The notes beneath the pieces were generated by a model, which was given only the letters and a program-made list of their open reading frames with translations, did no database searches and had not been told where the DNA came from. Shown one piece after another: positions 8,030 through 55,430 of a DNA stretch of 64,000 nucleotides (position 1 is its first letter; the number at the start of each line of letters is the position of its first letter). Both the position numbers and the translations under genes were made by a program. Source of the DNA: a virus; the IMG/VR virus record IMGVR_UViG_3300030019_000576; one strand, given 5' to 3'.

Positions 8030-8076
8030 AAAATATTTTATTTTTATATATTATAAAAACAGGGTTTTGTTTAAAT

Positions 8077-8106
8077 AAAAAACCCATAGAAAAATCTATG
8101 GGTTTT
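8077..8106 (-). terminator. rho-independent terminator
   Basis: AAAAACCCATAG-aaaaat-CTATGGGTTTTT hairpin after the stop of the sigma factor gene. Confidence 0.65.
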
Positions 8107-8109
8107 TAT

Positions 8110-8973
8110 TTAGTTAAGTCCGTGTTCATCAAGTAATTTAAACTTCTTGTTAACCATTGATTGTATTAACTGTCTACCTTTACTAATTTGTGATTTAATA
8201 GTTGAAAGATTTGTTGTTGTTTTATAAACCCCTATTAAAGAACCAATTGAATAAATTTCAATATCGTTGATATTCGATATTTCTTCACGATTTATATTAA
8301 ATATTGTTTGTGGTAAAATTTCAAATTCAATAACAATTTCTTTATCATAATGATTTTTATATGTAAATATAACATAGCTACTAACACTGCTATTATTTTC
8401 AAGTTCTAATGATAAAAATTCAGGTGTATCTTCCAATTTGAATGTTTCATCGTCAAGTTTTATTGAATATTCTTTTTTACATATATCAGCAATATCAAGA
8501 TACGTTTTATTTTCAATTTCCCGTAAAACCATAACATGTTTATATTTATCGGGTAACCTTTGAATTGCTTCTTTAACTAATTCTACTTTTTTTAATAAGA
8601 TTAAATCTTGTTCAGTTTTTACATCATCATATACCAAACTATTAGAAATAACCGTTGTAAGGTTTAAGTTATCATCATTTTGTTTATCCATAGAAACAAC
8701 ATTGAGTCGTTTTCTATCTTTATATTCTTTCTTTACTAAGTTTTCAGCTATTTTGTAAATCCATGTATGGATTTGTGATTTTTCAGCATTGAAGTTGTCT
8801 ATTTTTAATAGTGCTTGTGTAAATGCATCATCAGCAAAATCTTCTGCTATCTCTTGGTCTTTTGTGTATTTGGTCAGATGCCAAATTAATTTAGGTTTAT
8901 AAACTGCATAAAAATTAGAAAAATTAAGTCCAGTTATCTGTTCAAATTTGCGTGATAAGTTGTCGTTCAGCAT
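8110..8973 (-). CDS. RNA polymerase sigma factor, sigma-70/ECF type, with a C-terminal extension of about 110 aa
   Basis: Region 2 (IAEDFADDAFTQALLKIDNF, YKIAENLVKKEYKDRKR) and region 4 (LPDKYKHVMVLREIENKTYLDIADI) match ECF sigma architecture. Confidence 0.65.
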   Translation of the reverse strand: MLNDNLSRKFEQITGLNFSNFYAVYKPKLIWHLTKYTKDQEIAEDFADDAFTQALLKIDNFNAEKSQIHTWIYKIAENLVKKEYKDRKRLNVVSMDKQNDDNLNLTTVISNSLVYDDVKTEQDLILLKKVELVKEAIQRLPDKYKHVMVLREIENKTYLDIADICKKEYSIKLDDETFKLEDTPEFLSLELENNSSVSSYVIFTYKNHYDKEIVIEFEILPQTIFNINREEISNINDIEIYSIGSLIGVYKTTTNLSTIKSQISKGRQLIQSMVNKKFKLLDEHGLN

Positions 8974-9023
8974 AATAATATTTTGTTTTTAAATATGGGT
9001 TAGTATAGGTTTATATTATATCA

Positions 9024-9063
9024 AAAAAGTGGAAAGAAGTTTGTTTTATTTTCCACTTTTTTG
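9024..9063 (-). terminator. rho-independent terminator
   Basis: AGTGGAAA...TTTCCACT stem followed by TTTTTTG, just after the stop of 9083..11053. Confidence 0.55.
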
Positions 9064-9082
9064 ATATTTTCCTATTTAATAA

Positions 9083-11053
9083 TCAATTTCTTCTTCTAAC
9101 CCTGAATGGATGGTAGTCGTAATTGTTTGTGAAATTTGATTCATCCGCAAATAAATCACGTAGTTCATCTGTTAATTCATTTCCTTCTTCTGAATCAATT
9201 ATATGAATATCTTCTTCAACTTGTCTTGGTTGAAAATCATAAGCATCATAACCATCATACGAAACATTTCTGCGTTGAACTACTGGTTCATCATTTACAA
9301 CTTGTCGAGGTGATTCATCATTTGTAACTTGTCGAGTTGATTCATCATTTGCAACTTGTCGAGGTGATTCATCATTTTCAACTTGTCGAGGTGTTTCAAA
9401 TATGTCTGCCATAGTCTGTCCACCAGGCATGGTAATATGCCCAAGACTTCTACTACCAGTAAGACTTCCATAGAGTGAATTATGTGATACTGAATATGTT
9501 TCATACATTTGATGTAGAGCTTCGGAAGAAGAAGTTAACGTACTTCTTAATCGTCTTGGATCGATTGTTTGTTCTAAATCAGTTTCAGATGGTTCAACAC
9601 CACCATCTTCTACATCATATTGACCCCTATCAGTACGTGGTGCTCTATAATAAGAACCATAAGAATCACCCATACTCTTTTTTTGTTTAGCTTTTCTATT
9701 CTTTAAATAGGTTTCCCTCACTTCATTTGAATAAAAAATTCTACCATTACTTTCTTCAAATTCTACTCCAATAAGTTTGTAATGAATAATAACTTCTTTA
9801 TCTTCCAAATAAGCAGTTCTTGCACTATTTTTGTATATAAATGTATCCATGTATTCAGACCAAATCGCTTCATCAACTAAGAAATATTTAGTGTTACCTA
9901 ACACATTAGAACAAACTATTTTAGGACTTTTGTTATATGCTTTTCTTTCACCTGTATTATGAACATAAACTTCATCACCACGATATACCCATGTTTCATC
10001 AATATCAACATAAACAGCTTCATCTTCTAATATATTTTCATTATAGAATGTACTAAATACACGTGGTCTATCATCAACTTCTGAATGATAACGACCTTGA
10101 TAATCAGTTAAAATAATATGACCAGTTGTAGTACGCAAATCACCATTATTTGATAAAACATGAGTTTCCTTATTATATATTGATAAACTATCAAGATAAG
10201 GATAATATTCATAATGACGTTCAGGGTGTTTATTCAATGTTACTTGAAGAAGCATATCACGATATTCATAAACTGAATTAGTTGTAGGGTCAGCAATTTT
10301 GTTAAACCAACCATAACGTTGTTCAGTTCTATATAACCATCCTTGTTCTTTTGCGTAGTTTTTGAAAATTTCAATATCAAAATCATTCACAGTATAAATT
10401 CTATCCATGAATATACGTTTACTTGGAACTTCTAAATTCCAAAGTATTGCACGACCTTTTAATTTACCTGCATCATCTTTCAATATTAACATACTGAAAA
10501 CATCTGTATTTGAAGTATACATTCCAAGGAATTTACCTGATTCAGTATAACGCATACAAGATTTACCAAGCGGTGTTTCTTGATGTGCAAAACGTGAATA
10601 GTTTTGGTGGTCATACCAAAAACGGATGTCTTCACCTGTAACTACTTCAAAACGTGCGTAGTTAACATTTTTTTCACGTTCAGCTTTAAACATATTAACA
10701 AATGATTCAATATCATTTCTTGTTCTTGGTGCTGGACAATCTTTTGGTTGATTTACAGGAAAATGGTCTTCAAACATCATTTTAATGAGTTTACCAATTT
10801 TCAGATTTGTTCGCTTATCAGTCCAAACAAGTTCTTTCCAAGATACTTCATTAGCACGTACCAATTCCATAAATTTATTGTTGATAATATATGATACATT
10901 ATCATTTTCATTACCAAAATCTAAATATGAAATTCTATCATATTCTTTGTTACGAATTCTGTCTAACAAAGCAAATGATATTTGATGTTCAATGTTACTT
11001 AACATTTCAATAAGTCTTTGTGATGCTTCTAATCTAATGTCTCCACTTTTCAT
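9083..11053 (-). CDS. large hypothetical protein with a C-terminal 9-aa tandem repeat
   Basis: 656-aa ORF with an ATG start. The C-terminal region contains at least four copies of (S/T)PRQVxNDE. No catalytic motif is recognised. Confidence 0.5.
   Translation of the reverse strand: MKSGDIRLEASQRLIEMLSNIEHQISFALLDRIRNKEYDRISYLDFGNENDNVSYIINNKFMELVRANEVSWKELVWTDKRTNLKIGKLIKMMFEDHFPVNQPKDCPAPRTRNDIESFVNMFKAEREKNVNYARFEVVTGEDIRFWYDHQNYSRFAHQETPLGKSCMRYTESGKFLGMYTSNTDVFSMLILKDDAGKLKGRAILWNLEVPSKRIFMDRIYTVNDFDIEIFKNYAKEQGWLYRTEQRYGWFNKIADPTTNSVYEYRDMLLQVTLNKHPERHYEYYPYLDSLSIYNKETHVLSNNGDLRTTTGHIILTDYQGRYHSEVDDRPRVFSTFYNENILEDEAVYVDIDETWVYRGDEVYVHNTGERKAYNKSPKIVCSNVLGNTKYFLVDEAIWSEYMDTFIYKNSARTAYLEDKEVIIHYKLIGVEFEESNGRIFYSNEVRETYLKNRKAKQKKSMGDSYGSYYRAPRTDRGQYDVEDGGVEPSETDLEQTIDPRRLRSTLTSSSEALHQMYETYSVSHNSLYGSLTGSRSLGHITMPGGQTMADIFETPRQVENDESPRQVANDESTRQVTNDESPRQVVNDEPVVQRRNVSYDGYDAYDFQPRQVEEDIHIIDSEEGNELTDELRDLFADESNFTNNYDYHPFRVRRRN
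9284..9396. repeat. 27-bp tandem repeat, about 4 copies, inside the 9083..11053 coding sequence
   Basis: ttcatcatttRYaacttgtcgagKtga repeats head to tail and encodes PRQVxNDES units. Confidence 0.7.
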
Positions 11054-11090
11054 TTTTTAATTTTTACGTGTTATTAATTTGTTATTTATA

Positions 11091-11132
11091 GTGCAAAGGT
11101 AATATAATTTTTTGAATTACCAAATTATTTTC
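11091..11132 (-). promoter_or_regulatory. conserved phage promoter motif (Bacteroidota sigma-A type: TTTG then TAnnTTTG)
   Basis: gtgcaaaggtaatataattttttgaattaccaaat. Its minus-strand reading is ATTTGGTAATTC...TATTACCTTTGCAC, placed upstream of the 11053 start. Confidence 0.5.
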
Positions 11133-11138
11133 TGTTTT

Positions 11139-11660
11139 TTAATATTTAATTTTCAATCCCAATTCATCTCTAAATGATATTAATGCTTCTGCATTACCCA
11201 AACAATCTTGAATCGGATTATGCGTATGTTTAGTTTTACGATATTTACGTTTCCAATCTGCGTTTTTACCAGCATCATTCATCATCCCACAATATAAGTC
11301 ACCAATCCTACGTGCGGAAAAACCAAATGGATTTCTACCTAAATATTTATGGAAGTAAAAATTAATCCATTGCCAATCAAATGCAGGATTGTCACTAATA
11401 AAAGTTGGTTTACCAACACTTACTTCAAGTATCCATTTCTCAAAATTTTCCATAACAATTTTAGGATCATCAAATTCTTCATGTTCTTCCCTACTGAATC
11501 CACTTATTGCAAGTGCAGATGGTTCAAATTCATCACTAATTGGTCGTGTTTCACCATAAAATGTCTTTGTTTGGTCGTTAACTAAGACAGCACCAAAACA
11601 AACCATACTTCTGTTTGCTGGTGATGGACCATCACTTTCTACATCTAAAACGATATACAT
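11139..11660 (-). CDS. DEDDh-family 3'-5' exonuclease
   Basis: Exo I YIVLDVESDG (D, E), Exo II FISDNPAFDWQW (D), Exo III HTHNPIQDCLGNA (H...D). Confidence 0.65.
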   Translation of the reverse strand: MYIVLDVESDGPSPANRSMVCFGAVLVNDQTKTFYGETRPISDEFEPSALAISGFSREEHEEFDDPKIVMENFEKWILEVSVGKPTFISDNPAFDWQWINFYFHKYLGRNPFGFSARRIGDLYCGMMNDAGKNADWKRKYRKTKHTHNPIQDCLGNAEALISFRDELGLKIKY

Positions 11661-11835
11661 TTTTTTATTTTTTTAAATTGTTGTTTAAATATATAATAAA
11701 TTCATCTTCATTCATTACATTTTTTTTACTATTTATATATCTTGAACATATACATAAATTATTAAGTTGTCCTAATTCTATTGGATTTATATTATTTTTA
11801 AATCCATAAAAAATACTTTTTTCATATATTTTTAT

Positions 11836-12234
11836 TTATTTATTTTCAAATGCACTATAACTTTCTAACCATGTTGAATTCCATTCCCTGCGGTCATCTT
11901 CCATTTTTTTGTTGAAGAAAAATTCAACAGTTTCACATCCGAAAAAATCTTTAATTTGACTTTCTAAAAATGCTACTGTTAATTTATTTGTACCACAAAT
12001 ATTATAGACTTCCCTTTCAAAACTTTTCCATTTAGGTTGATTAGTCCAAACTGTTACGTGTGTTGTATCATGTGTGAATATGTGGTCTGTATAACCTGCA
12101 AACCATTCTTCTATATTTTTTACATCACCATCAGGACGATGTGACATGTATTTTACAAATTTTAAGAATAATAATTGTTCAGGTGCTAACCTTGCTTCTT
12201 TAATCAGTTTGATTTTACTTCTAACATCACCCAT
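11836..12234 (-). CDS. hypothetical protein (the ORF-track start at 12270 is a TTG; the ATG at 12234 is preferred)
   Basis: The promoter motif at 12251-12285 lies inside the TTG extension; MGDVRSK follows the ATG. Confidence 0.4.
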   Translation of the reverse strand: MGDVRSKIKLIKEARLAPEQLLFLKFVKYMSHRPDGDVKNIEEWFAGYTDHIFTHDTTHVTVWTNQPKWKSFEREVYNICGTNKLTVAFLESQIKDFFGCETVEFFFNKKMEDDRREWNSTWLESYSAFENK

Positions 12235-12250
12235 AGTTGTATAGTTATAA

Positions 12251-12285
12251 ATTATGCAACAAAGATACAATAATTTTTTTTATCT
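12251..12285 (-). promoter_or_regulatory. conserved phage promoter motif
   Basis: attatgcaacaaagatacaataattttttttatc is a variant of the ACAAAGATAATACAA core. Confidence 0.4.
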
Positions 12286-12315
12286 ACAAAATTTTTTTGC
12301 AATATTTTTAAATAA

Positions 12316-12522
12316 TTATTTAGAAAAAAAATCTTTGAATGATTTATTATATTTCATTAATAACCACATTGAAGTAATAACCAAGATGAATATTCCACCT
12401 GATATCAATGCAAATTTTAATGAATGCATACTCATTGAATATGTTAAAAACATAATATACATTGCTAATAGTAAGTTTTTAAAAGTAAATATATATTTCA
12501 AAAATTTTTTAATCGTTTTCAT
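12316..12522 (-). CDS. small membrane protein (2 TM)
   Basis: 68-aa ORF with two hydrophobic helices, lying between co-oriented genes. Confidence 0.3.
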   Translation of the reverse strand: MKTIKKFLKYIFTFKNLLLAMYIMFLTYSMSMHSLKFALISGGIFILVITSMWLLMKYNKSFKDFFSK

Positions 12523-12534
12523 ATTTTTCGTTTT

Positions 12535-12900
12535 TTATTTTATAAGATTTAATGCAAATCTTAAACCAATTTCTAATGCTTCTTCCCATGTTTTAAAATT
12601 ATGATATTTAACATCAGTATTTTCTAATAAGAAATCATATGATCCAATATTAGTTATTATATCATTTCTATGTATTACTGTTAAATGAATATTCTTTTCA
12701 TCCCTTAACCATTTTTGTAATGATGTTTGTGTTGGTGCTGATATTCTTATTGGAATCAGTAAATTATTACTATATCCACCATGTACTTCATCATCATCAT
12801 CATCATATATATTATAGAAGGTGTAATTAAGTTCAGTATAACCATTATCCTTTGCAAGCATTGCAGTGTCACGTGTCACGTAATCCATTTTATCTTTCAT
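12535..12900 (-). CDS. LQKWLRDE-family protein (paralog 1 of 3)
   Basis: Shares AKDNGY, PTQTSLQKWLRDE and a C-terminal ALEIGLRFALNLI with 12910..13293 and 23677..24108. Confidence 0.5.
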   Translation of the reverse strand: MKDKMDYVTRDTAMLAKDNGYTELNYTFYNIYDDDDDEVHGGYSNNLLIPIRISAPTQTSLQKWLRDEKNIHLTVIHRNDIITNIGSYDFLLENTDVKYHNFKTWEEALEIGLRFALNLIK

Positions 12901-12909
12901 AATATTGTA

Positions 12910-13293
12910 TTAATCAATTAAACTTAAACCATACCTTAAACCGTCTTCAAACGCTTCTTCAAACTTATCATATCTATTAATAGGTTTATCTTTAATATCA
13001 TGATTTACATGCTTACCATTTACGGTGCAAATAAATTCTAAAGTATTATCAAATGATAAAGATTCCCTTGGTGATACATATATTTTAAATTCATCCCTTA
13101 ACCATTTTTGCAAAAGTGCTTGTGTTGGACGTGTTGTATATTCAAGTCCACAATCACCATAACTACGATTATGGTCTTCTTTTTGTGGTACCGTTGACAT
13201 TGGTCTCACCCCTATGAAATATTCATATGTTTTTATTCGAAATCCTTTTTCTTTTGCAATTCTTGCTGTTTCAATTGTTATGTAATCTTCCAT
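12910..13293 (-). CDS. LQKWLRDE-family protein (paralog 2 of 3)
   Basis: ETARIAKEKGF, PTQALLQKWLRDE, EAFEDGLRYGL. Confidence 0.5.
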   Translation of the reverse strand: MEDYITIETARIAKEKGFRIKTYEYFIGVRPMSTVPQKEDHNRSYGDCGLEYTTRPTQALLQKWLRDEFKIYVSPRESLSFDNTLEFICTVNGKHVNHDIKDKPINRYDKFEEAFEDGLRYGLSLID

Positions 13294-13513
13294 TTCTTAT
13301 TTTTTCTATTTTTTGTCTTCTTAATATTAATATTGCTTCTTTGTAAGATAACGACATTTTAAAATCTCTGCAAAATTCAAGTTGTTCAGATAAAGGAAAT
13401 CTATATTTAACTCTATCTTCTTTATTTCTTTGTGTATATATATAATATGCAAGGTTATCTAAATCAGTTGCTTCTTTGAAATTCCATTTTCCACTCTTTT
13501 TATCAATTTTCAT
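13271..13513 (-). CDS. IDK-GxW / EKIEKI-tail small-protein family member
   Basis: MKIDKKSGKW...LDNLAYYIY...RRQKIEKIRNG. Confidence 0.45.
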   Translation of the reverse strand: MKIDKKSGKWNFKEATDLDNLAYYIYTQRNKEDRVKYRFPLSEQLEFCRDFKMSLSYKEAILILRRQKIEKIRNGRLHNN

Positions 13514-13730
13514 TTTTAGATTTCAATTTTAGTATTTTTTCAATTCTTATTTGATGAAATGCTTGTTCATAAAAACTATCTTTATATAGTGCTACCATAA
13601 ATTTCTTTTGTGATGGTACCGAAAAATTTTCACCGAAATTATAATATGTATATAAAAATAATGTATATGCAACATCATCAACTTGTGATGCATTTTCATC
13701 CCATTCACCATGACTTTTATCAATTAACAT
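13503..13730 (-). CDS. IDK-GxW / EKIEKI-tail small-protein family member
   Basis: MLIDKSHGEW...VDDVAYTLFLY...IRIEKILKLK. Confidence 0.45.
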   Translation of the reverse strand: MLIDKSHGEWDENASQVDDVAYTLFLYTYYNFGENFSVPSQKKFMVALYKDSFYEQAFHQIRIEKILKLKSKNEN

Positions 13731-29794: not shown

Positions 29795-30049
29795 TTATAT
29801 TAATCCGTAAAAATGGGATTTTTTAAAATTAATCATATTTACACGTATAGCATATTTAGTGTATTCATACTGTTTATTATCATCATAATCATAAATATAA
29901 ATTTTATCCCCAACAATTTTTTTTATTCTACACCTTGATTCAGTCCAAATTAATTTCGTGTATAAACCTTCACTAACACCAGACCATTTATATCTTTTAC
30001 CTTCAACTAAAACAGTACCGTCATGTAATATAATTTCTTTCATAAACAT
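29795..30049 (-). CDS. hypothetical protein
   Basis: Co-oriented ORF. Confidence 0.4.
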   Translation of the reverse strand: MFMKEIILHDGTVLVEGKRYKWSGVSEGLYTKLIWTESRCRIKKIVGDKIYIYDYDDNKQYEYTKYAIRVNMINFKKSHFYGLI

Positions 30050-30621
30050 TTATTTATTATATTTTTAAGTTCTTCTAAATCAACAATATAACTATTATCA
30101 ATCGTGTAATCAGATTTACTTTTTTTTAATTCAACATCCATTTGTGAAGATAATCTATCTTTTATTTGTTCAGCAGTAAAACCATTTCTACTTTTTAAAC
30201 GCTGTTCTACTATATCTTTATCTGCATAAATACAAATGACAGCATCAAAATTATCTTGTTTATTATGTTCAAATATTAATGCACTTTCATTAAATATAAT
30301 ATCTTCATCTTCGTGTAAATAACAAAAATGTTCAAATGCTTTTTGGATATATTTCGTAAATATACCATTTACTATATTTAATTTATCTTTATCTTTAAAT
30401 ACCAAAGACATATACTTTCTATTATATGTACCATCAGGTAAATATGCATCAGTACCAAATTCAGTAATAAGTTCACTTTTTAAATCAACATTATTGTTTG
30501 CTGCATAAGTAGCATGGTAATCAGAATAAAATACTGAATATCCTAATCCTTCTATCATTATACAAACTGTCGTTTTTCCACTACAAATCCCACCTGTTAT
30601 CGCTATCTTCTTGTTTTTCAT
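30040..30621 (-). CDS. coaE: dephospho-CoA kinase
   Basis: IAITGGICSGKTTV (CoaE P-loop), DGTYNRKYMSLVF, and C-terminal VICIYADKDIVEQRLKSRNGFTAEQIKDRLSSQ, all colinear with E. coli CoaE. Confidence 0.75.
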   Translation of the reverse strand: MKNKKIAITGGICSGKTTVCIMIEGLGYSVFYSDYHATYAANNNVDLKSELITEFGTDAYLPDGTYNRKYMSLVFKDKDKLNIVNGIFTKYIQKAFEHFCYLHEDEDIIFNESALIFEHNKQDNFDAVICIYADKDIVEQRLKSRNGFTAEQIKDRLSSQMDVELKKSKSDYTIDNSYIVDLEELKNIINKCL

Positions 30622-30926: not shown

Positions 30927-31850
30927 TTAAATTAAATATTTATCACCTTTACCATATTTTTGTAGCATCTTAATAGATGAACTACTTACATGTTCAAATT
31001 CTGAATCAGATAAGATATTAATAACCTTAATATCAGGTTTTAAATCTTTTAGATAACGATATTGTGTTTTTTCAAATTCTAAATCACTTGCATTTCTTAA
31101 TCCACGAATAAGTGTTACATCATATCCTAACCCATCAATGAAATCAGTTAGCAATCCAGTATAAAGTCCTGCTTGTCTATTTTTTAGTGTATTAGTTAAT
31201 GGTAATAGTTCATCTGACTTAGAAGTATTAATTCCACGTGCGATTATTACTTTATCAAAAATAGCTTCTGCTTTCTTCAATATATCATAATGTCCTACAT
31301 GAAATGGGTTAAAAGAACCTGCATAAACACCAATATTATATTTACGGTATTTAATATAATCAAGATATTCTTGTTTAATATTACCAAAATGCTTTTCTAA
31401 GAATTTAATTCTATTTTCTGTATATGTTTTTACATCAACAAATTGGTATTCTTTAAAAATACCATCTTCATATTTCATAAATGAATTGAAATCACCATAT
31501 AATACTGATAAATCATATTTATTCAATAGTTTAGAAGTTGGATTTACATCAATGTGATTCTTGGTAGCTAAAATTGCTTCATAAACATCAGGATAATTAA
31601 AAAATGTTTTAAAAAGTTCTGCTGACTTTTCTTCATTATCATTATTCATTGGATCATATACTATATCATGGAATACAATAGCAAGAAGTAATTCATCTGA
31701 TAATTTGTTATCATCTATTGCTTTCCCTATTAAATCCAATACATGATTCCAAGTATGGTAAAAACGTTGTGGTTCAGAATATCTTTCTTTGTAAAAATCC
31801 ACTAATCCCATTTTTTCCGAAATCAATTCTTCTATTAGTTTTATATCCAT
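30927..31850 (-). CDS. coaD: HD-domain protein fused to phosphopantetheine adenylyltransferase
   Basis: N-terminal HTWNHVLDL...VFHDIVYDP is an HD motif. The C-terminal half carries GVYAGSFNPFHVGHYDIL (HxGH), LIRGLRNASDLEFE and HVSSSSIK, colinear with E. coli CoaD (TFDPITNGHIDIV, LIRGLRAVADFEYE, ISSSLVK). Confidence 0.7.
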   Translation of the reverse strand: MDIKLIEELISEKMGLVDFYKERYSEPQRFYHTWNHVLDLIGKAIDDNKLSDELLLAIVFHDIVYDPMNNDNEEKSAELFKTFFNYPDVYEAILATKNHIDVNPTSKLLNKYDLSVLYGDFNSFMKYEDGIFKEYQFVDVKTYTENRIKFLEKHFGNIKQEYLDYIKYRKYNIGVYAGSFNPFHVGHYDILKKAEAIFDKVIIARGINTSKSDELLPLTNTLKNRQAGLYTGLLTDFIDGLGYDVTLIRGLRNASDLEFEKTQYRYLKDLKPDIKVINILSDSEFEHVSSSSIKMLQKYGKGDKYLI

Positions 31851-41938: not shown

Positions 41939-42400
41939 TCAAACTACCAAATGTTTATCCAATAATAATTCATTTAAATTTTTATAAAATGGTATTTTAT
42001 AGTCATCACATACTATTTTAACGTTACCACTTCTCCAATATTCATCAGGGCAGCATACGATTAACTTACCACTTGATGCTTGAAGACCTAATTCTAATAA
42101 TGATATAGGACTTTTACTATTTGGTAGAAAATTCATTATAATAATGTCTGAATATTCCATTGCATTTAATTCCCATTTTACTTGACCATAAAATTCTGCA
42201 TTTTCAATTTTTTGTTCCCATGAATCATCCCATACATCCCTACGTGGATTATATAATACTACATTCGGAAAACTACTAAAGTGTTCTTCAACATTTTTCT
42301 GCCAATTTTCAGATTCACCTTGGTCAATGGTACCTGCTAAAAAGATAGCAAATGTGCCATATGGTTTCTGTATTGGAATTGGTGGTTTATAACTTGTCAT
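41939..42400 (-). CDS. nucleoside 2-deoxyribosyltransferase-like (SLOG superfamily) protein, tentative
   Basis: GTFAIFLAGTIDQG resembles the YLAGP nucleotide-binding loop of NDT/DUF4406 proteins. Confidence 0.35.
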   Translation of the reverse strand: MTSYKPPIPIQKPYGTFAIFLAGTIDQGESENWQKNVEEHFSSFPNVVLYNPRRDVWDDSWEQKIENAEFYGQVKWELNAMEYSDIIIMNFLPNSKSPISLLELGLQASSGKLIVCCPDEYWRSGNVKIVCDDYKIPFYKNLNELLLDKHLVV

Positions 42401-43480: not shown

Positions 43481-43774
43481 TTAATGTTTCCAAATATATT
43501 TACTTAATACGAATTTCATCTTTCTATCAAAATCGGGATCATTTTCTAATTCTTTCAACATACCATAATGATATGATGTATCTAATGAATTATCATCGGG
43601 TTCACCGTTACGTAGAATCATTTGATAGTTATCATTTACATAAGAATCTTCATCTTCATATGTATTTATTTCATCAATATCTTCATGTATTCTTTCTAAT
43701 ACTTTTACTACTTCACGATAAAACATAACCTTTTTAAGTTTTTTATTAATCATTGAATTTTTTTTGAAAGTCAT
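43481..43774 (-). CDS. hypothetical protein
   Basis: Co-oriented ORF. Confidence 0.4.
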   Translation of the reverse strand: MTFKKNSMINKKLKKVMFYREVVKVLERIHEDIDEINTYEDEDSYVNDNYQMILRNGEPDDNSLDTSYHYGMLKELENDPDFDRKMKFVLSKYIWKH

Positions 43775-44255
43775 TAAAATCTTCGCAAAAAATAATCAAA
43801 TTTATTTGTTCGGATGTCATAAAATCACCCATATGTTTAAATAAATTAAACCATTGTTCACCGAATAAGTAAATATTTGGTTTTACAATCATTTTACGAA
43901 CTTCATCTAAGAGTAAAAATAATTCAGCAAGTGTTCCAATACCACCTCTTTGAATTACAAAGGTTTCGCTTTCAGCATTTAAATATCCTAATCTATCATA
44001 AATATCATTACATATAATAGTTTCAGTTAAAAATTCATTACCTTTTGTGAATCCAAAAGACTTACATGTATATCCAAATGCTTGTCCATCTGCTTCTGTT
44101 GCACCCTTTGATACAGCTTCCATTAACCCACGATAACCACCATTTTTAACTATAAAACCCTTATTAGCTAAGAATCCACCTATTAGAATACTATCATTAT
44201 ATTCCTTTGTTGTTCTATCATTGATAGCACCACCGAAAAAAGTTGCGTATTTCAT
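43746..44255 (-). CDS. LOG-family (Lonely Guy / TIGR00730) putative nucleotide N-glycosidase
   Basis: GGYRGLMEAVSKGA (the GGGxGxMgA motif) and QRGGIGTLAELF (the PGGxGTxxE motif). Confidence 0.65.
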   Translation of the reverse strand: MKYATFFGGAINDRTTKEYNDSILIGGFLANKGFIVKNGGYRGLMEAVSKGATEADGQAFGYTCKSFGFTKGNEFLTETIICNDIYDRLGYLNAESETFVIQRGGIGTLAELFLLLDEVRKMIVKPNIYLFGEQWFNLFKHMGDFMTSEQINLIIFCEDFNDFQKKFND

Positions 44256-45099: not shown

Positions 45100-45453
45100 T
45101 TATAATCTATTATTTTGTGCTAAAATTTCAACCCAATGACCAACTATCCAACTTAGGAATTTATTATATTCTTTATCAGATGTTAGTTCATAACCTGAAT
45201 TTATAATCCATGATTCAGCAATATCTTTATAATTAATATAATTTTTAGAATCATCAAATACACCATCTTTAATATCGGATTCAATAAGATTACAAATTTC
45301 ATCTGAAAATTTAACTAATACAATATCAGTATATTTTTCAATTTGGTCATCAGTAAAACCATTTTTAAAATATTTATCAATATAATCTTGATTACCACCT
45401 GCTCTAATATAATTAATTTTTGGTGGTTCATTATTTTGTTTCAATTCTTCCAT
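45100..45453 (-). CDS. hypothetical protein
   Basis: ATG ORF with a promoter motif upstream. Confidence 0.4.
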   Translation of the reverse strand: MEELKQNNEPPKINYIRAGGNQDYIDKYFKNGFTDDQIEKYTDIVLVKFSDEICNLIESDIKDGVFDDSKNYINYKDIAESWIINSGYELTSDKEYNKFLSWIVGHWVEILAQNNRL

Positions 45454-45465: not shown

Positions 45466-45500
45466 ATACAAAGATAATACAATAAATTGAATTACCAAAT
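45466..45500 (-). promoter_or_regulatory. conserved phage promoter motif
   Basis: atacaaagataatacaataaattgaattaccaaat. Confidence 0.5.
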
Positions 45501-45505
45501 TATTT

Positions 45506-46477
45506 TTAATTATTACTAATAAATTTATCAACAATATCTACACATTGTTTAAATCTGTCTTCAAAATCAGTTCCTTTAATGTAAGAAATATTCTTATCTT
45601 TAAAGTTATTGTATAGCAATTCGTGGAATTTTGAACGATTTGGTTCACCCATCCGACTACCATCATCAACAAAAGGTACATCATTCCATAGGAATAAGTA
45701 TAAATCAAATTTATTTGCATCTTCTACTTCCTTAGTGATATTTTCTGGGTGTTTATCAAATAGAAAGTTACTATAACAAACAGTTGTTATTAAATCAGTA
45801 TCAGAAAATAATATTTTATCCCCTAAGTTTTTTTCAATTTCTTCTGCTTGACCTGTAATTATTAGATTTATCATATCTGTATCACATATTTTTGTATCTG
45901 AACACACATCACGACCTACTTCTTTTGCAAACTTAAAGTTATAGTGATTAGATAATAATTCTGTCATAGTTGATTTACCAGTACTTTCAGTACCACATAT
46001 ACATATTTTTTTAGTATAATATGATTTAACTGATTTTGGTATAAAATTCCAATATTTTAATGGTGTTTCCCTTATTGATGTAGATGAAATCGGTGTGTTT
46101 GTTCTTTTTTCATCGTATTGCATATGTTTAATATTCATAAATCCACCAACATAATCACCATATTTTTCACTTGTGAAAATTATATTCACATCAGGAAATA
46201 AATCTGTTAAATATAAAGACCAAACCCTTGATATTTCAATATTTGATACAGATGTATTTTCCATATGTGATGTATCCTTATGAATTATTTTTATATTAGG
46301 TATATCTTTAAATTCTTCTTGTAACCATTTATATCTAAGTTCGCTTGGAATTTCTTCTTTATCGTGTGAGCATAATAATACATAAAGAAAATCAGAATTT
46401 GATAATCCAAAGTTTATTAAAGAAAGATGTCCATTATGTAAAGGACAAAAACTACCTAATACTAATCCTGTTCTCAT
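45506..46477 (-). CDS. nadR: bifunctional NMN adenylyltransferase / ribosylnicotinamide kinase (NadR type, lacking the HTH domain)
   Basis: GLVLGSFCPLHNGH (HxGH). ISSTSIRETPLKYWNFIPKSVKSYY...ICGTESTGKST aligns with E. coli NadR ISGAQIRENPFRYWEYIPTEVKPFF...ILGGESSGKST. A Walker B DTD is present. Confidence 0.85.
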   Translation of the reverse strand: MRTGLVLGSFCPLHNGHLSLINFGLSNSDFLYVLLCSHDKEEIPSELRYKWLQEEFKDIPNIKIIHKDTSHMENTSVSNIEISRVWSLYLTDLFPDVNIIFTSEKYGDYVGGFMNIKHMQYDEKRTNTPISSTSIRETPLKYWNFIPKSVKSYYTKKICICGTESTGKSTMTELLSNHYNFKFAKEVGRDVCSDTKICDTDMINLIITGQAEEIEKNLGDKILFSDTDLITTVCYSNFLFDKHPENITKEVEDANKFDLYLFLWNDVPFVDDGSRMGEPNRSKFHELLYNNFKDKNISYIKGTDFEDRFKQCVDIVDKFISNN

Positions 46478-46478
46478 T

Positions 46479-47024
46479 TTACGTTGTTTTTAAATGTTTT
46501 TTCCATTCTTTATAACCCGCAATTGATAATATTATTAATAATAAATTATACCCTGCGATGTAATACATATCTTGATGAAGACATAATATAATTAACATTA
46601 CATTATTTATCATAAAAATCCACCAAGATTCAATAACCTTTTTAACTAATAAATATGTTGCAAGTAGTGCGATAATACCACCTATACCATCAAGATATAA
46701 TAAATTATTATTAGTTGTTTTAGTTAATAATGTAAAGATAATACCAATCACCATGCATATTCCTATGCATAGTGCTGATTTAGTATATCCTATTTTTGTA
46801 ACTTCTTTTGTATCAACTTCATTCCATTTTACCCAACCATACGCACATTGACCAACTGAAACAAGTTGTAATACCATCTGTGAATAAAAGTTTACATTAT
46901 AAAAGTAATAGGTTAATAGTACTGCACTAATTAATCCAAATACCCAACAAAGTAGATTTTGTTTAATTGTTAAAAACACACTTACTATTCCAATAATGAC
47001 TGAAATTAATTCAATATTTTTCAT
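46479..47024 (-). CDS. pnuC: nicotinamide riboside transporter
   Basis: CAYGWVKW and C-terminal ESWWIFMINNVM...IAGYNLLLIILSIAGYKEW align with PnuC (NIYGWYAW, ENWLLWVIINV...). Its start overlaps the receptor stop (TAATG). Confidence 0.8.
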   Translation of the reverse strand: MKNIELISVIIGIVSVFLTIKQNLLCWVFGLISAVLLTYYFYNVNFYSQMVLQLVSVGQCAYGWVKWNEVDTKEVTKIGYTKSALCIGICMVIGIIFTLLTKTTNNNLLYLDGIGGIIALLATYLLVKKVIESWWIFMINNVMLIILCLHQDMYYIAGYNLLLIILSIAGYKEWKKHLKTT

Positions 47025-48997
47025 TAAAATTTAACTTTAACTGTTGTATAAAAATTAAGTGGAGCACCTATAAAATAAGCATTTTCCCCATTTGAAACAT
47101 ACCCACCCGTAAAGTATTTAGTGTTAGTTAAATTATTACCTTGAATTGATAAGTTTACATTTTTAGTTAATTGATAACCAATTTTTGCATTGAATAATAC
47201 ATAACCAGGAATTGTTTCAGTATTTGCAGGATTAATAAATGCATCCGATAAATATCGACCAGATACGTTTATAAAGAGCTTACCGTTGTTGTATTCAATA
47301 TTCTGATTAACTATTACATTTGGTGTATAAAGTGCGTGATATGATGTGTTATCACCTTTAATTTCACTATTCATTAATGTTGTATTATTATTTATAGATA
47401 AATTTTTTGTAAGATTACATGAAAAATCAAATTCTGCACCATAACGTGAACTTTTATCTACATCTGTCATTAATGGTAAACTATTTAACCCCATTGCACC
47501 TAATTGTGTAATTTCATTATTAAAGTCCATATAAAACAAATTACTTTGAAGTTTCACAACACTATTTGATAAGTTATAACCAAGTTCATAGTCAATAACA
47601 CTTTCAGGTTTAATTATAAATAAATCAACTAAATTATCATTCCCACCGAACATGTCACTTCTTGTAGGTTCACGGTGTGATTGACCAACCGAAAAATACA
47701 AAGATTCATTATTTGTAATTGTGTATGTCACACCCCCACGTGGATTTAAAAACAACCAATTAATTCGTTTCATTGGATTATCACCTATGTAAGTGAAGTT
47801 AACATTACGTAATTGTAAGTCAGTAAATAAACTAAATTTATTTATATCATAATTTGCTTTGATGTAAAAACTTCCTTCGTTTTTATATCCAGTATTTGTA
47901 TATAAGGAATCAATCTGAACAGAACCAGGGTGTGTCATATTTCCACTGTGTGTTCGATTATATGTATTAAGCTGAAATCCAGTGTTAAATTTTAAATCAT
48001 TATATTTTATAAGATAATTTGATGTGAACCCAACGAAATTAGAATTTAATCCAAAATTAAGCAAGTCAGTTGGTGCAGTAAACATACCCCATTTACCATC
48101 TAAATGATTGTAAAAGAAAGTATTTGTTAGAACATAATTACTTGATTCACTATGAACATATTGTAACTGTACAAAACTTTGATTAAAATCATCATTTTCA
48201 CCTTTAGGGTTATAATTTGTGCGAGGGTCTTTTAATATATCAGATTCTGATACTGCATACCATGCCATTTGATTAATTGATTTACCCGAAAATGCAGTCA
48301 ACTTTAATACATCCTTATTACCATAGTATCCACCCGAAAGAAATGCTGAATAACCACTACCACTTGAATTATATTTATACCCATCACTTGTATATTCTGA
48401 TACACTACCAAATAACGCAAATTTATTAATTAAACCCGTACCAAAATTAACATTAAGTGATTGTGTTCCAAAACTACCCGATGTAAAACTTGCATTAAAA
48501 CCTTTATCTAAACCTGTTTTACTTTCAAAATTAATACTACCACCATATGAAGATGTACCATTTGCTGATGTACCAATACCACGTTGGATTTGCATAGAAT
48601 TAATATTCATTGCGAAATTAGGAAAATTGCTAAAATATACCCCTTGGTCTTCACTTTCATTTAACGGAATACCATTTAATGTCATATTTATACGTGTTTG
48701 GTCAATTCCACGAATTCGAAATGATACATATCCATTAGGTTGACCACCATCAGATTGTGATGTAATTGATGGTGTTTTATCTAAAATATACACCATTTCT
48801 TGACCACTGTATTGCTTATCAATGTCAACACTATTGACAACTTTTTGGGAAATAGGTGTTTTAATATCTGGTCGAATACCTACAACTTCCACGTCATTTA
48901 ACTTTACTACTTTTACAGTATCTTTTGATACTTGCGAATAAGAGGTAAACACATTAAATAATGCGATAACCAACACAAAAAATTTAATTTTCTTCAT
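47024..48997 (-). CDS. TonB-dependent outer-membrane receptor
   Basis: Signal peptide MKKIKFFVLVIALFNVFTSYSQ, an N-terminal plug region, a long beta-barrel with alternating aromatic strands and a C-terminal ...VKVKF (terminal Phe). Confidence 0.7.
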   Translation of the reverse strand: MKKIKFFVLVIALFNVFTSYSQVSKDTVKVVKLNDVEVVGIRPDIKTPISQKVVNSVDIDKQYSGQEMVYILDKTPSITSQSDGGQPNGYVSFRIRGIDQTRINMTLNGIPLNESEDQGVYFSNFPNFAMNINSMQIQRGIGTSANGTSSYGGSINFESKTGLDKGFNASFTSGSFGTQSLNVNFGTGLINKFALFGSVSEYTSDGYKYNSSGSGYSAFLSGGYYGNKDVLKLTAFSGKSINQMAWYAVSESDILKDPRTNYNPKGENDDFNQSFVQLQYVHSESSNYVLTNTFFYNHLDGKWGMFTAPTDLLNFGLNSNFVGFTSNYLIKYNDLKFNTGFQLNTYNRTHSGNMTHPGSVQIDSLYTNTGYKNEGSFYIKANYDINKFSLFTDLQLRNVNFTYIGDNPMKRINWLFLNPRGGVTYTITNNESLYFSVGQSHREPTRSDMFGGNDNLVDLFIIKPESVIDYELGYNLSNSVVKLQSNLFYMDFNNEITQLGAMGLNSLPLMTDVDKSSRYGAEFDFSCNLTKNLSINNNTTLMNSEIKGDNTSYHALYTPNVIVNQNIEYNNGKLFINVSGRYLSDAFINPANTETIPGYVLFNAKIGYQLTKNVNLSIQGNNLTNTKYFTGGYVSNGENAYFIGAPLNFYTTVKVKF

Positions 48998-49030
48998 TGT
49001 TTTTTTTTTTAATTGTTATTAATAATTTCG

Positions 49031-49068
49031 AGTACAAAGATAATACAAATATTTTGAATATACAATAG
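49031..49068 (-). promoter_or_regulatory. conserved phage promoter motif driving the receptor-pnuC-nadR operon
   Basis: agtacaaagataatacaaatattttgaatatacaatag. Confidence 0.5.
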
Positions 49069-49995: not shown

Positions 49996-50886
49996 TTAAT
50001 ATATTATATTATTTTCACCAAAACCATATCTAAGATATTCACCATCAAATATAAGACTATTTGTTGTATCTTGATTTTTATATGTATTTTTTAAATATAA
50101 TTTAATATGTTCACCTTTGAAGTTTTTTGGGGTATATAAATAATTTCTACAAGTACAGTGTTCGGGGTATTCAAACTGTTTCGAATTAAAGAAACCCTTC
50201 TTCAATTTTAAGATATTAATGTCAATAAAATTATCAGTACAATATTCATTAACTTGTAATAATGAAACAAATCCTGCTGAAAATACATTTAATTCATTTG
50301 CGTTTTCTAAGAAATTAATTACTTTTCTATTAGTATCGACACCACCTTTTACTAAAGTGCATCCAAAATGTAGCAACCCATCTCTTGTATGATTGGATTG
50401 TACTTCACCTATTTCTTCATTTGAAATACTTTTAAACCCTAAAATTCTATCGTTTATTTTATTGTTATAGTGGTGTTTAGATAGTCCAATATTATCTATA
50501 TAATCTACTGTTGAATCAGCAAACATTTGAACTAACTTCAATCCATTTGTATTTAATCCAATATAAGTATTGGGATATTCTTCTTTTGTGAATTTTAATA
50601 CATCTTTAAATCTACTGTAATTTAAAGTTGGTTCACCACCCGTAAATTGTATTTTTCTTAGTTCAACACTGTTACGTTTTATTTCTGCTAAAATTTCTTC
50701 ATATTTTTTAAAATTAAAATGATTAGCTATTTCTTTGAATTCACAAAATAAACAATCAGCATTACATCCTTTAAATCTAACATAAAGATTAATATAGGGT
50801 TCTGTTATATCAGAACCCTCATTACCGAAAAACATACAATACTTATCACGTAATGTAATGTCTTTATCAAATAAGTTTATATTCAT
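49996..50886 (-). CDS. radical SAM enzyme (possible peptide-modifying maturase)
   Basis: GCNADCLFCEF is the CxxxCxxC cluster; FTGGEPTL is the SAM-binding GGE motif. Extra C-terminal cysteines (EYC, HCTC) could be an auxiliary cluster. It lies directly downstream of the Cys-rich precursor-like gene. Confidence 0.6.
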   Translation of the reverse strand: MNINLFDKDITLRDKYCMFFGNEGSDITEPYINLYVRFKGCNADCLFCEFKEIANHFNFKKYEEILAEIKRNSVELRKIQFTGGEPTLNYSRFKDVLKFTKEEYPNTYIGLNTNGLKLVQMFADSTVDYIDNIGLSKHHYNNKINDRILGFKSISNEEIGEVQSNHTRDGLLHFGCTLVKGGVDTNRKVINFLENANELNVFSAGFVSLLQVNEYCTDNFIDINILKLKKGFFNSKQFEYPEHCTCRNYLYTPKNFKGEHIKLYLKNTYKNQDTTNSLIFDGEYLRYGFGENNIIY

Positions 50887-50902: not shown

Positions 50903-51274
50903 TTAACAACTCGACCTATTACTACTACCAGAACTACCACATCCATCACTTGTCGTACTTCTGCTTATACTTCTACTTGGTGTACTACCACAACCATCAA
51001 TACGAACTGTTCTACCTGAACTACCACAACCATCACCATATGTTTGTGAAGGTCTTTGTACTTGTGGACTACTCTTACTAAATGATTTAAATCTTTTAAC
51101 TATTTCATTTGGTTCTTCATCATCTAAGAATTCTTCTATTATTTCTTTATCAATTTGACCATCTTCTACTAATTTATTAGTATATGTTTTAAATTTTGCT
51201 TCCCATTCGGTACCATATTTTGAATTAAAAAATTTTTTTAATTCTGATAATAAATTATTTTCCGCTTTTGTCAT
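50903..51274 (-). CDS. precursor-like protein with a triple DGCGS C-terminal tail
   Basis: Helical acidic N-terminal region of about 75 aa, then ...GDGCGSSGRTVRIDGCGSTPSRSISRSTTSDGCGSSGSSNRSSC (four Cys in repeated DGCGS units). Confidence 0.45.
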   Translation of the reverse strand: MTKAENNLLSELKKFFNSKYGTEWEAKFKTYTNKLVEDGQIDKEIIEEFLDDEEPNEIVKRFKSFSKSSPQVQRPSQTYGDGCGSSGRTVRIDGCGSTPSRSISRSTTSDGCGSSGSSNRSSC

Positions 51275-51332: not shown

Positions 51333-52055
51333 TTATTTAAATTTTTCATCAAATATATCAAAATTATCACCTACTGAATTGTTATCGTTAATAATAGCAA
51401 AGACAACATTTTTAAATAAATCAGCGTATCCATTTGTTACTAAGATATTATAAAACAAATTTGAAATTATTTCAGGATTGTTTTTAAATACACCACACCC
51501 CCAAGCACCAATAACAATATTTTCAACATTGTTATTGATTGCAAGTGATAACATCAATTTTATTTTATTTTTTGTTGTATCAATATAATAAGAATTATCA
51601 TAATTACAAATTTCATTAAGATTCATTGCAGCAATAGTAATAACATCAGATACAATTTCGTCCATATAATCATAATTTACATCTTTAAAAAATATCGCAT
51701 CCTTTGTATATAACGCTTGATTTTCAACTAATGGATAGAATATATTACTTATAACATTAAATAGATTAGAACACCTAAAAAGACATTCTTCTTGTGCTTT
51801 TGCACCATTTTCTACACCACCACCAGGTCTGGAAGGTGATGCCATATTAAGAACACAACTTTTACCTAATTTACTAACAATTTCCAATGCTGTTACCGAA
51901 TCAGAATTAACTACTAATATATTATTTTTAATACTTGGTGTAACTGCAATTGTTACTGAATCAAGAAAAGTATGTTTAGTAGTGACTGATTTATTCATGT
52001 CAATACTATAATTTTTAGTATCTTTGAATACATTAATTAATTTATCATTGTTCAT
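51333..52055 (-). CDS. bacterial-type poly(ADP-ribose) glycohydrolase-like macrodomain protein (DUF2263/TIGR02452-like)
   Basis: NMASPSRPGGGVENGAKAQEECLFRCSNL contains the bacterial PARG catalytic signature GGG-X7-QEE. Confidence 0.55.
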   Translation of the reverse strand: MNNDKLINVFKDTKNYSIDMNKSVTTKHTFLDSVTIAVTPSIKNNILVVNSDSVTALEIVSKLGKSCVLNMASPSRPGGGVENGAKAQEECLFRCSNLFNVISNIFYPLVENQALYTKDAIFFKDVNYDYMDEIVSDVITIAAMNLNEICNYDNSYYIDTTKNKIKLMLSLAINNNVENIVIGAWGCGVFKNNPEIISNLFYNILVTNGYADLFKNVVFAIINDNNSVGDNFDIFDEKFK

Positions 52056-54293: not shown

Positions 54294-55430
54294 ATGAAAA
54301 AAATGAAAAACTTTAATGAATTTATATTTGAAGGTATAGATATCAATAAAAAACAGTTTATAGTAAACAAAATTTTATCACATTTAAAAATAAAATTGTT
54401 TTATGTATCCACTTATCAAATGTCATTCACTATGATATTACCATTGATGGAAAAATTCTTTGAAGGAAATAGATTTTCATTTGATAAAACACCATATAAT
54501 AAAACATTGTTATACATATACGCATATTCTATTTTATGCTATGAAAACAAAGATAAGTTAAGAATTATTTATGATGAACTACATTCTAAAAATATTCAAG
54601 ATAAAGAAATACAATATGCTATAAATGTTTTGAATAATATAAAATTATTATTTATTAAATTGATGGATAGTTCTGATAAGCATATTAAAACTTTCATTGA
54701 TGTATTAAAAAATAATGCATTATTTATACCTTACTTATCAGTACTTACTTCTTTGATAAATAATGAAAGATTAAATATTGAATTATTCACTGGAAAATTT
54801 GCAGATTTCCAACTTGAATTAGGGGAAGAAAACTTTAATATATTGATAATCAAGATAATAAATAAAATGAATATTATAGCAGGTGGTACAAATAAGTTAC
54901 AAAATAAAGAAAATGCAAAACCATTCTTAGTAAATGATGAATTTAAATCACCAATGTATCAATCAGAAAAACCATTTATATATGATAATCTTACAGAAGG
55001 TATAAATGATTATTTAACAGGTCCAAGTGATGAAGAAATAATGAAAAAAAATCATCTAATTGGATTATCCCCTGATAGATTATTAGTTGATTCAAGTAAA
55101 ATAGGTTATTTAGTTGGTGTAAAGAAAGCATTAGAATCGGGTGCTGATTTACATTGTGATGAAGATAACGCACTTGTATTAGCATGTAAAAATGGTAAAG
55201 CAGATGTAGTAAAATATTTAATAGAACAAGGTGCAGATGTACATACTGGAAATGATGAACCATTAAAAATGAGTGCTTTTTCAGGTTCATTAGATACATT
55301 CAAAGCTGTTATTGATTCGGGTGAAGAATTTGACGGTGAAACACAATCAATAGTAGCAGATTATGCATTTACATCTGATGCTTTAATGGATTATATAATG
55401 GAAATTTGGGAAGCAGATGATTTAAAATAA
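54294..55430 (+). CDS. ankyrin-repeat protein
   Basis: The C-terminal third has at least three ANK repeats (ALESGADLHCDEDNALVLACKNGKADVVKYLIEQGADVHTGNDEPLKMSAFSGSLDTFKAVIDSG). Confidence 0.55.
   Translation: MKKMKNFNEFIFEGIDINKKQFIVNKILSHLKIKLFYVSTYQMSFTMILPLMEKFFEGNRFSFDKTPYNKTLLYIYAYSILCYENKDKLRIIYDELHSKNIQDKEIQYAINVLNNIKLLFIKLMDSSDKHIKTFIDVLKNNALFIPYLSVLTSLINNERLNIELFTGKFADFQLELGEENFNILIIKIINKMNIIAGGTNKLQNKENAKPFLVNDEFKSPMYQSEKPFIYDNLTEGINDYLTGPSDEEIMKKNHLIGLSPDRLLVDSSKIGYLVGVKKALESGADLHCDEDNALVLACKNGKADVVKYLIEQGADVHTGNDEPLKMSAFSGSLDTFKAVIDSGEEFDGETQSIVADYAFTSDALMDYIMEIWEADDLK

Follow-up and report, generated by a model that had tools for sequence, protein, structure and literature searches.

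Among the enzymes with which phages synthesize nicotinamide adenine dinucleotide (NAD+), NadR was listed by Iyer et al. (2022), and Osterman et al. (2024) reported that phage nadR usually lies beside pnuC, a pairing that might form a further NAD+ reconstitution pathway. A survey of NAD-jumbo phages (Microbiome 2024, PMC11662467) recorded pnuC in 68 of 174 and catalogued clusters of both pnuC and nadR. Import of nicotinamide riboside (NR), synthesis of NAD+, and the overcoming of Sir2-HerA have since been established by experiment for NARP3 (Yan et al., Sci Adv, August 2026, PMC13464706), which consists of two proteins of Escherichia phage TrudiRoth, Bas30_87 (PnuC, whose NR-binding residues are N45, Q94, and N180) and Bas30_86 (NadR). 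Here, we analyze an operon that places a TonB-dependent receptor gene ahead of pnuC and nadR in a 64,000-nucleotide (nt) stretch of viral DNA, IMG/VR record IMGVR_UViG_3300030019_000576 (“the window” denotes this whole stretch). We read it, with a probability of about two-thirds, as a host-derived, envelope-spanning NR salvage operon that very large phages of Bacteroidota have kept and that is driven, as a single transcription unit, by a phage-wide promoter of host sigma-A type. An initial annotation of the locus had held that published phage routes to NAD+ use other enzymes; that claim falls, as the combination of PnuC with a NadR lacking the helix-turn-helix (HTH) domain was predicted in 2024 and shown as NARP3 in 2026. 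What is new here is the outer-membrane component and the megaphage/Bacteroidota setting, the PnuC–NadR core being already published.

The window shares with NARP3 adjacent phage genes for an NR permease of PnuC type and for a NadR that lacks the HTH and combines kinase with adenylyltransferase, as well as the same predicted chemistry, in which NR is converted to nicotinamide mononucleotide (NMN) and then to NAD+. It differs in possessing an extra gene, for a TonB-dependent transporter that is translationally coupled upstream; in gene order (PnuC then NadR, whereas NadR is upstream in Bas30); in setting (a huge phage with a Bacteroidota host, versus a T5-like phage of Enterobacteriaceae); and in descent, since the window module, unlike NARP3, derives from a Bacteroidota chromosomal operon. 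Window NadR is only ~30% identical to its enterobacterial-phage homologues. The NAD-jumbo phages (PMC11662467), along with NARP2 and the NadV–NatV pair of KVP40, resemble the window in being large phages with NAD salvage genes; as to an outer-membrane component, neither “TonB” nor “outer membrane” appears in the text of PMC11662467. NARP2 starts from nicotinamide by way of NadV, which is absent from the window: tblastn searches for NadV, NadE, PncA, NrtR, and PrsA found none of them there. In bacteria, Haemophilus influenzae acquires NR through the OmpP2 porin, the periplasmic hydrolases NadN and e(P4), PnuC, and NadR, and a riboswitch-controlled thiamine locus of Bacteroides combines an outer-membrane receptor with PnuT and a kinase. 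Both follow the same logic (outer-membrane entry, a PnuC-family permease, and a trapping cytoplasmic kinase), but Haemophilus uses a porin where the window has a TonB-dependent transporter, and the Bacteroides locus handles thiamine under a riboswitch; no riboswitch or other Rfam element was found in the window or in ten cellular loci.

The operon and its promoters, with gene boundaries from open reading frame (ORF) calls, are as follows:

47024–48997, minus strand: TonB-dependent receptor, 657 amino acids (aa)
46479–47024, minus strand: pnuC, 181 aa
45506–46477, minus strand: nadR (HTH-less), 323 aa
49034–49067, minus strand: operon promoter, with −7 box GTATTATCTTTGT at 49034–49046 and, ~10 nt upstream, −33-like box TATTGTATATTC at 49056–49067
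45468–45501, minus strand: next promoter copy, 3′ of nadR, ATTTGGTAATTC ... GTATTATCTTTGT, with its −7 box at 45468–45480

Coordinates and junctions, read again, are those of the initial annotation: the receptor stop and the pnuC start overlap in a TAATG that shares base 47024 (a −1 nt junction), and pnuC ends one base (46478) before nadR begins (+1 nt). The operon structure given there likewise stands, with three tightly packed minus-strand genes between two promoter copies. The receptor gene is flanked in the window by an 89-aa ORF on one side and by pnuC on the other, and both boxes of its promoter fall within the 75-nt gap that follows the preceding ORF. The copy at 45468–45501 precedes an ORF at 45100–45453 and sets the 3′ boundary of the transcription unit; as promoter copies lie before the receptor gene and directly after nadR, the trio constitutes one such unit. 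No convincing intrinsic terminator was seen in the 52-nt gap 3′ of nadR.

That a single phage promoter motif precedes the operon, as first proposed, is upheld by counts: GTATTATCTTTGT is found five times without mismatch in the window, where 0.013 occurrences would be expected; every one of the five lies on the minus strand ahead of an ORF start, and four further copies carry one mismatch. Each copy has a ATTTGGTAATTC-like sequence ~10 nt upstream and an ORF start 15 to 45 nt downstream. The Bacteroidota sigma-A consensus is TTTG at −33 and TAnnTTTG at −7; the −7 box of the operon includes TAnnTTTG, and we take the two-box promoter of the window to be this sigma-A pattern. Four relatives (contigs L006, L007, L089, and L090) have the same promoter type upstream of the receptor gene, preceded in some relatives by a hairpin terminator. 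A generic sigma-70 promoter scan was uninformative in so AT-rich a window (63 sites, versus 66.5 expected), and GCTGCAT...CCGTTGCA, a candidate leader motif ahead of the cellular receptor genes, was dropped because it occurs in only 3 of 79 loci.

Across the window, the strongly conserved two-box promoter (ATTTGGTAATTC, ~10 nt, GTATTATCTTTGT) stands upstream of at least nine functionally unrelated genes, with minus-strand −7 boxes ending at 2798, 22956, 29747, 41367, 45480, 49046, 49602, 61217, and 62987, and may mark phage genes of a single temporal class. A sigma-70-like protein is encoded in the window as well (8110–8973).

Profile searches agree with the initial naming of all three proteins, the similarity being significant for both PnuC (122 bits to PF04973) and NadR (E of 5e-59 to TIGR01526). 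The PnuC match to PF04973 (cut-off, 27.3 bits) covers model positions 3 to 175 of 175, and the protein also scores 86.3 bits against TIGR01528 (cut-off, 42.45) and matches phrog_1880; its match to PnuC of N. mucosa (4QTN) is weak. With the conserved positions W27, G30, G63, W64, W67, W134, and W174 kept, it is predicted to be a PnuC-family inner-membrane NR permease. NadR combines an N-terminal NMN adenylyltransferase domain with a C-terminal ribosylnicotinamide kinase domain and aligns to residues 66 to 408 of the 411 in the E. coli-type model PRK08099; because the alignment begins at position 66, the HTH region is absent, as the initial annotation had it. In a PDB search, residues 3 to 319 match E. 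coli NadR (8x7f) at 3e-36, and further matches are 9x6f (“nicotinamide-nucleotide adenylyltransferase,” 2e-33), which we presume to be Bas30_86, H. influenzae 1lw7, and Lactococcus 6gye; the score to phrog_3462 is 253 bits. Re-inspection found the HxGH and Walker motifs intact and conserved among homologues: the protein has HxGH (H14, G16, H17), ISSTxxR (S131, T133, R136), Walker A (G162...G167 K168 S T170), Walker B (D226–T227), and a lid (D272–G273–R275). These catalytic motifs are conserved in all eight phage-like homologues and in ~70 to 73 of the 73 cellular ones.

The receptor exceeds the Pfam cut-offs for both Plug (47 bits) and TonB_dep_Rec_b-barrel (99.5 bits). Its N-terminus resembles a signal peptide, MKKIKFFVLVIALFNVFTSYS|Q, in which Gln follows the probable cleavage site; LNDVEVVG, a candidate TonB box, lies within a conserved L-x-x-V-x-V-(T/V)-G stretch at residues 33 to 40, and the C-terminal residue is Phe. 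An AlphaFold2 model (pLDDT 83, pTM 0.83) aligns in Foldseek over its full length (~660 columns) with FecA, PqqU, and YncD at TM-scores of ~0.80 to 0.83, and the receptor is thus, by its predicted fold, a classical plug-and-barrel transporter. Homologues are abundant (3,314 at E ≤ 1e-20). We consider the best reading of the protein to be an outer-membrane transporter that takes up NR, or a pyridine nucleotide related to it, with high affinity, which is suggested by its near-universal coupling to pnuC–nadR and by the NrtR/NadV/PrsA context of its cellular homologues; no description of an NR-type role for this receptor, in bacteria or in phages, was found in the literature.

The only published interpretation is apparently a different one: in the marine megaphage Mar_Mega_1 and in LR745206, a receptor that probably belongs to the same gene family was called SusC and assigned to carbohydrate uptake (Michniewski et al. 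2021, PMC9723777), the genes after “SusC” being hypothetical in the Mar_Mega_1 annotation tables (PMC9723777). The LR745206 receptor, part of the same trio, shares 51% identity with that of the window. SusC/RagA proteins were recognized by a length of ~1,000 aa, an extra N-terminal domain, a model match, and an adjacent gene for a SusD-like lipoprotein; the window receptor has 657 aa and neither the extra domain nor a SusD-like neighbor, and no SusC/RagA model is matched among NCBIfam families at E ≤ 0.01. Contrary to the published reading, the receptor belongs to an NAD-salvage operon, and its interpretation as SusC or a sugar importer is not supported.

A broader version of this objection, that the receptor imports a siderophore, metal complex, or carbohydrate and that its adjacency to pnuC–nadR reflects only shared regulation or history, could draw on the SusC annotation (PMC9723777), on Joint Genome Institute homologue names (“iron complex outermembrane receptor protein”), on the nearest structures (FecA, FoxA, and Fiu), and on the best NCBIfam match, the siderophore-receptor subfamily TIGR01783. 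That match scores 103.8 bits against a cut-off of 223.5, however, and a SusC/RagA identity meets the difficulties of length and neighborhood just given. The start–stop overlap with pnuC and the retention of gene order in 60 of 80 cellular loci and many viral ones, over several Bacteroidota classes, likewise speak for a shared function, as does the embedding of the operon between NadV and PrsA under NrtR, and the flanks that were inspected contained no iron or sugar genes. We judge a non-NAD cargo improbable. Still less probable is that the receptor acts at the cell surface (in superinfection exclusion, as a decoy, or in remodeling the outer membrane against competing phages) and that PnuC and NadR alone do the NAD work. 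TonB-dependent transporters are common phage receptors with which phages interfere, FhuA in complex with T5 Llp or pb5 is among the structural neighbors, and the phage copies form a distinct, fast-diverging group; yet the phage copies retain the conserved residues of the cellular plug and barrel (52 columns are invariant over 54 sequences), the translational coupling to pnuC is conserved, and the cellular operon, where no phage plays a part, is made up of the same genes.

This cellular operon was recovered by a receptor profile scan of one genome per bacterial species, which yielded hundreds of matches, the best 80 of which were examined. Almost all of these 80 loci are from Bacteroidota; the order receptor–PnuC–NadR is identical in 60, and in 14 more NadR lies directly 3′ of the receptor. 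The phage therefore carries a whole host operon, and the third gene is no phage invention. Chromosomal operons of this type (in Chitinophaga, Mucilaginibacter, Flavobacterium, Zobellia, Prevotella, and others) resemble the window in genes, order, tight junctions, and an HTH-less NadR (median 334 aa), such that the missing HTH is inherited rather than the result of phage-specific trimming. They differ in sequence (36 to 41% identity for the receptor and 31 to 41% for NadR) and in guanine-plus-cytosine (GC) content, which is 34 to 52% in the cellular copies versus 27.8% in the window trio and 25.2% in the window overall. Capture of the receptor, described initially as unusual, is so across phages in general, but its arrangement is the ordinary Bacteroidota one and its presence is a trait found throughout the megaphages.

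A subset of the cellular operons is flanked by NrtR, NadV, and PrsA, whereas the window copy has the phage-wide promoter and no NrtR. On three contigs from metagenome-assembled genomes (MAGs; L019, L020, and L032), the genes immediately upstream of the receptor encode NrtR, PrsA, NADAR (missing from L032), a phosphoesterase, and NadV; the cultured Mucilaginibacter conchicola and M. pocheonensis have NrtR ... NadV, receptor, PnuC, NadR, PrsA; and in Flammeovirga aprica, NrtR is directly upstream. The combination nrtR–prs–nadV is the classic NrtR-controlled NAD-salvage operon, known also from Cytophaga hutchinsonii, in the description of which no receptor is mentioned (PMC2330246). We found no published description of the chromosomal receptor–PnuC–NadR operon.

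Among deposited phage genomes, the receptor occurs only in four huge uncultured phages, fifteen Lak megaphages of Prevotella, and a small number of records that are fragmentary or doubtful. LR745206 and LR756502 have the three genes side by side; the 735-kb LR756501, as read from its translations, has an island of a NadE-like protein, receptor, a small ORF, a HAD-like protein, PnuC, NadR, a lipoprotein, and a PncA-like protein; in Lak-A1, the three genes lie within ~9 kb; and on phage-like contigs of 111 and 368 kb, the trio is followed by a CCA/poly(A) polymerase gene. IMG/VR contigs with the receptor (n = 44; 15 to 554 kb and 25 to 39% GC) have NadR within 5 kb in 37 cases, and PnuC is also detectable in 22. 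Recurrence in dozens of independent contigs shows that the trio is no chance juxtaposition, and the module is a conserved lineage trait of huge phages of Bacteroidota. (The LR756501.1 island, contig L003, spans 7052–13522, its NadE and PncA being named from translations, and is near-identical on IMG/VR contig L108.)

The window receptor is 46 to 65% identical to copies on phage-like contigs, versus 36 to 41% to those of cultured Bacteroidota. In a bootstrapped neighbor-joining tree of receptors, a split with 92/100 support unites the window with the phage-like contigs, all four megaphage records, and 37 of the 38 distinct copies from IMG/VR; the phage side of this split also includes a small cellular subgroup, separated from most cellular copies. 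Such trees, being distance-based and covering deep divergences, are indicative of coarse grouping only, and at that level the pattern points to an old acquisition followed by mostly vertical descent with some exchange. The module itself hints at mosaicism: window NadR is closest to LR756501-type copies (44 to 45%, versus 35% to LR745206), and for the receptor and PnuC the most similar copies are of LR745206 type (51% and 32%).

A NAPRTase-family gene of NadV or PncB type, with no counterpart in the window, lies a few kilobases from the module in contigs L137 and L138 (the loci of this gene and of a split NadR being 3775–4790 and 6976–8556 in L137 and 6214–7014 in L138). Several contigs with the receptor or a phage-type trio (L006, JAWVHA010000062.1, 368 kb; L009, JAJFLM010000305.1; L013; and L040) reside inside bacterial MAGs labeled with unrelated phyla (“Deltaproteobacteria,” “Staskawiczbacteria,” and “Marinamargulisbacteria”). 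Misbinning is the probable explanation, and at least L006 and L009 have the look of huge-phage DNA.

The window is itself huge-phage DNA, as the initial annotation assumed. It has ~25% GC and is coded almost wholly on one strand; it encodes IF3, sigma-70, primase, two RNA ligases (one an HNH fusion), DnaJ, ClpP, several radical SAM proteins, and many ORFans; and its genes recur only in megaphage genomes of 540 to 735 kb and in Cellulophaga phages. A 656-aa ORFan (9083–11053, minus strand), with no Pfam or PHROG match, has homologues only in uncultured phages of 634 to 735 kb and in Cellulophaga phages. That the window is instead a low-GC piece of bacterial chromosome or a chimeric assembly, and the operon the host's own, is hardly credible. 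Such an origin would account for the lack of any capsid, portal, or terminase gene in the 64 kb, which leaves a small residual doubt even though it is expected for a very large genome, and for the frequent binning of homologous contigs into bacterial MAGs (L006 and L009). Against it, an identical gene string appears in independent metagenome assemblies from several samples, the trio has the GC content and promoter of the surrounding genes, the ORFans and gene content match curated complete megaphage genomes, the receptor is closer to phage-like than to cultured Bacteroidota copies, and the window contains no tRNA, rRNA, or Rfam match. Megablast of window positions 1–25000 against deposited phages returned no match, so the phage itself is undeposited, and indexed assemblies yield only fragments of <50 kb rather than a longer contig.

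Other cell-like functions typical of huge phages are a fusion of a histidine-kinase ATPase with a response-regulator receiver (20–874, plus strand), a full-length IF3 (1605–2132, minus strand), and an ankyrin-repeat protein (54294–55430, plus strand). The 656-aa ORFan family occupies up to 15 places per genome in the 634- to 735-kb phages; the Cellulophaga phages measure 72 kb.

In the mechanism that we propose for the salvage operon, the receptor would be made early, presumably from its host-type promoter, exported, and inserted into the outer membrane by host BAM, where host TonB–ExbBD would power it to concentrate scarce NR (possibly NMN or NAD+) into the periplasm. After passage through the inner membrane by way of PnuC, NR would be trapped as NMN by the NadR kinase domain, and the adenylyltransferase domain of the same enzyme would make NAD+. 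The predicted route from NR through NMN to NAD+ set out in the initial annotation is supported. Its net effect would be that of NARP3 plus the outer-membrane gate of the Bacteroidota version of the operon, and the gain for the phage would be a sustained level of NAD+ in infected cells. Survival of NAD+-depleting defenses, as for NARP3, would be the likeliest selective reason; the other likely reason would be the supply of a long, costly infection. A counter-defense role, initially offered as plausible, keeps that standing from the rescue of phages from Sir2-HerA by NARP3 (PMC13464706), by analogy with which we infer it here.

The second of these reasons could also stand by itself: the same pathway may provide ordinary metabolic support, with NAD+ made to serve the NAD-dependent enzymes and redox demand of a long, expensive infection, or in NAD-poor hosts, and with no specific link to NAD+-depleting immunity. 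The genes are a straightforward copy of an operon by which hosts scavenge nutrients, genes of general NAD biosynthesis (NadE, PncA, or NAPRTase-family) are present in addition in related megaphages, such genes have been read as self-supply for NAD-consuming phage enzymes (PMC11662467), and the coenzyme A (CoA) pathway genes of the window (CoaE and CoaD-like) suggest broad cofactor provisioning. We nonetheless think metabolic support by itself rather unlikely, given that a homologous two-gene module neutralizes Sir2-HerA (PMC13464706) and that macro/PARG-like and SLOG genes cluster near the operon; the two purposes are not mutually exclusive.

Several observations weigh against the proposed NR salvage operon and its role in defense. 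NadR aligns with TIGR01526 from end to end (200 bits, E of 5e-59) and with PRK08099 (189 bits, E of 1.5e-55) but reaches neither cut-off (341.15 and 201); since it falls below equivalog cut-offs despite full-length alignment, it is, by these scores, a diverged NadR-type enzyme and not a strict equivalog. In PnuC, F137 replaces the second Trp of the WxxW found in cellular copies. The receptor's ligand is read from its gene neighborhood only, and its nearest solved structures are transporters of iron, copper, or pyrroloquinoline quinone, at 15 to 18% identity. An outer-membrane β-barrel needs time, as well as host Sec, BAM, and TonB–ExbBD, to be useful, and no TonB or ExbB/D was found among the scanned window ORFs of ≥150 aa. 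The closest receptor relative (L137, 64% identity) has its NadR split between two called fragments (82 and 192 aa), and the contig is of low coverage; the module may be dispensable there, or the assembly may be faulty. Finally, the sequence fits counter-defense and plain metabolic support alike.

Within ~5 kb of the NAD operon, the minus strand also encodes a PARG-like macro-fold protein (51333–52055; TIGR02452, 135 bits), a LOG/SLOG-family protein (43746–44255), and a nucleoside 2-deoxyribosyltransferase-like protein (41939–42400). Domain groups of the PARG-like, SLOG, and deoxyribosyltransferase types have been proposed to process ADP-ribose-derived immune signals (PMC9503650), and the three genes could form an island aimed at NAD- or ADP-ribose-based immunity, an arrangement that is suggestive only. 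Between the PARG-like gene and the operon lie a 123-aa ORF (50903–51274, minus strand) that ends in three Cys-containing “DGCGS” repeats inside a Ser/Gly-rich tail and, directly downstream, a radical SAM gene (49996–50886, minus strand) of no specific subfamily, with weak viperin-like and NrdG-like matches; together, they resemble a peptide and its maturase.

Further away, a dephospho-CoA kinase (CoaE; 30040–30621, minus strand) is encoded close to an HD phosphohydrolase fused to a CoaD-like adenylyltransferase (30927–31850, minus strand), which scores 85 bits against TIGR01510, below its cut-off. On this evidence, the phage may encode the last two steps of CoA synthesis. The HD-plus-cytidylyltransferase ORF was also considered as a second NMN adenylyltransferase, an assignment that was rejected in favor of a CoaD-like enzyme near CoaE.

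Beyond the operon of the window, we put forward more tentatively, as a possibility somewhat short of the probable, that Lak-type and other Bacteroidota megaphages share a virus-encoded NARP3 equipped with an outer-membrane component, with which they outlast NAD+-depleting immunity, and that the substrate class of this receptor family is NR/NMN/NAD+. The use of PnuC and NadR by phages to rebuild NAD+ is, as a core idea, no longer novel; if the broader proposal is true, however, it would extend NARP3 from T5-like phages of enterobacteria to the largest phages of Bacteroidota, including the Lak megaphages of the gut, and would add to it a component previously unreported there, a virus-encoded TonB-dependent transporter. 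It would also correct the published sugar-importer reading of the megaphage gene and assign a substrate class, vitamin B3 scavenging, to a large, uncharacterized family of Bacteroidota TonB-dependent transporters. Such an assignment makes a testable substrate prediction for a widespread transporter family, one that would have consequences for the cross-feeding of vitamin B3 within gut, soil, and aquatic communities.

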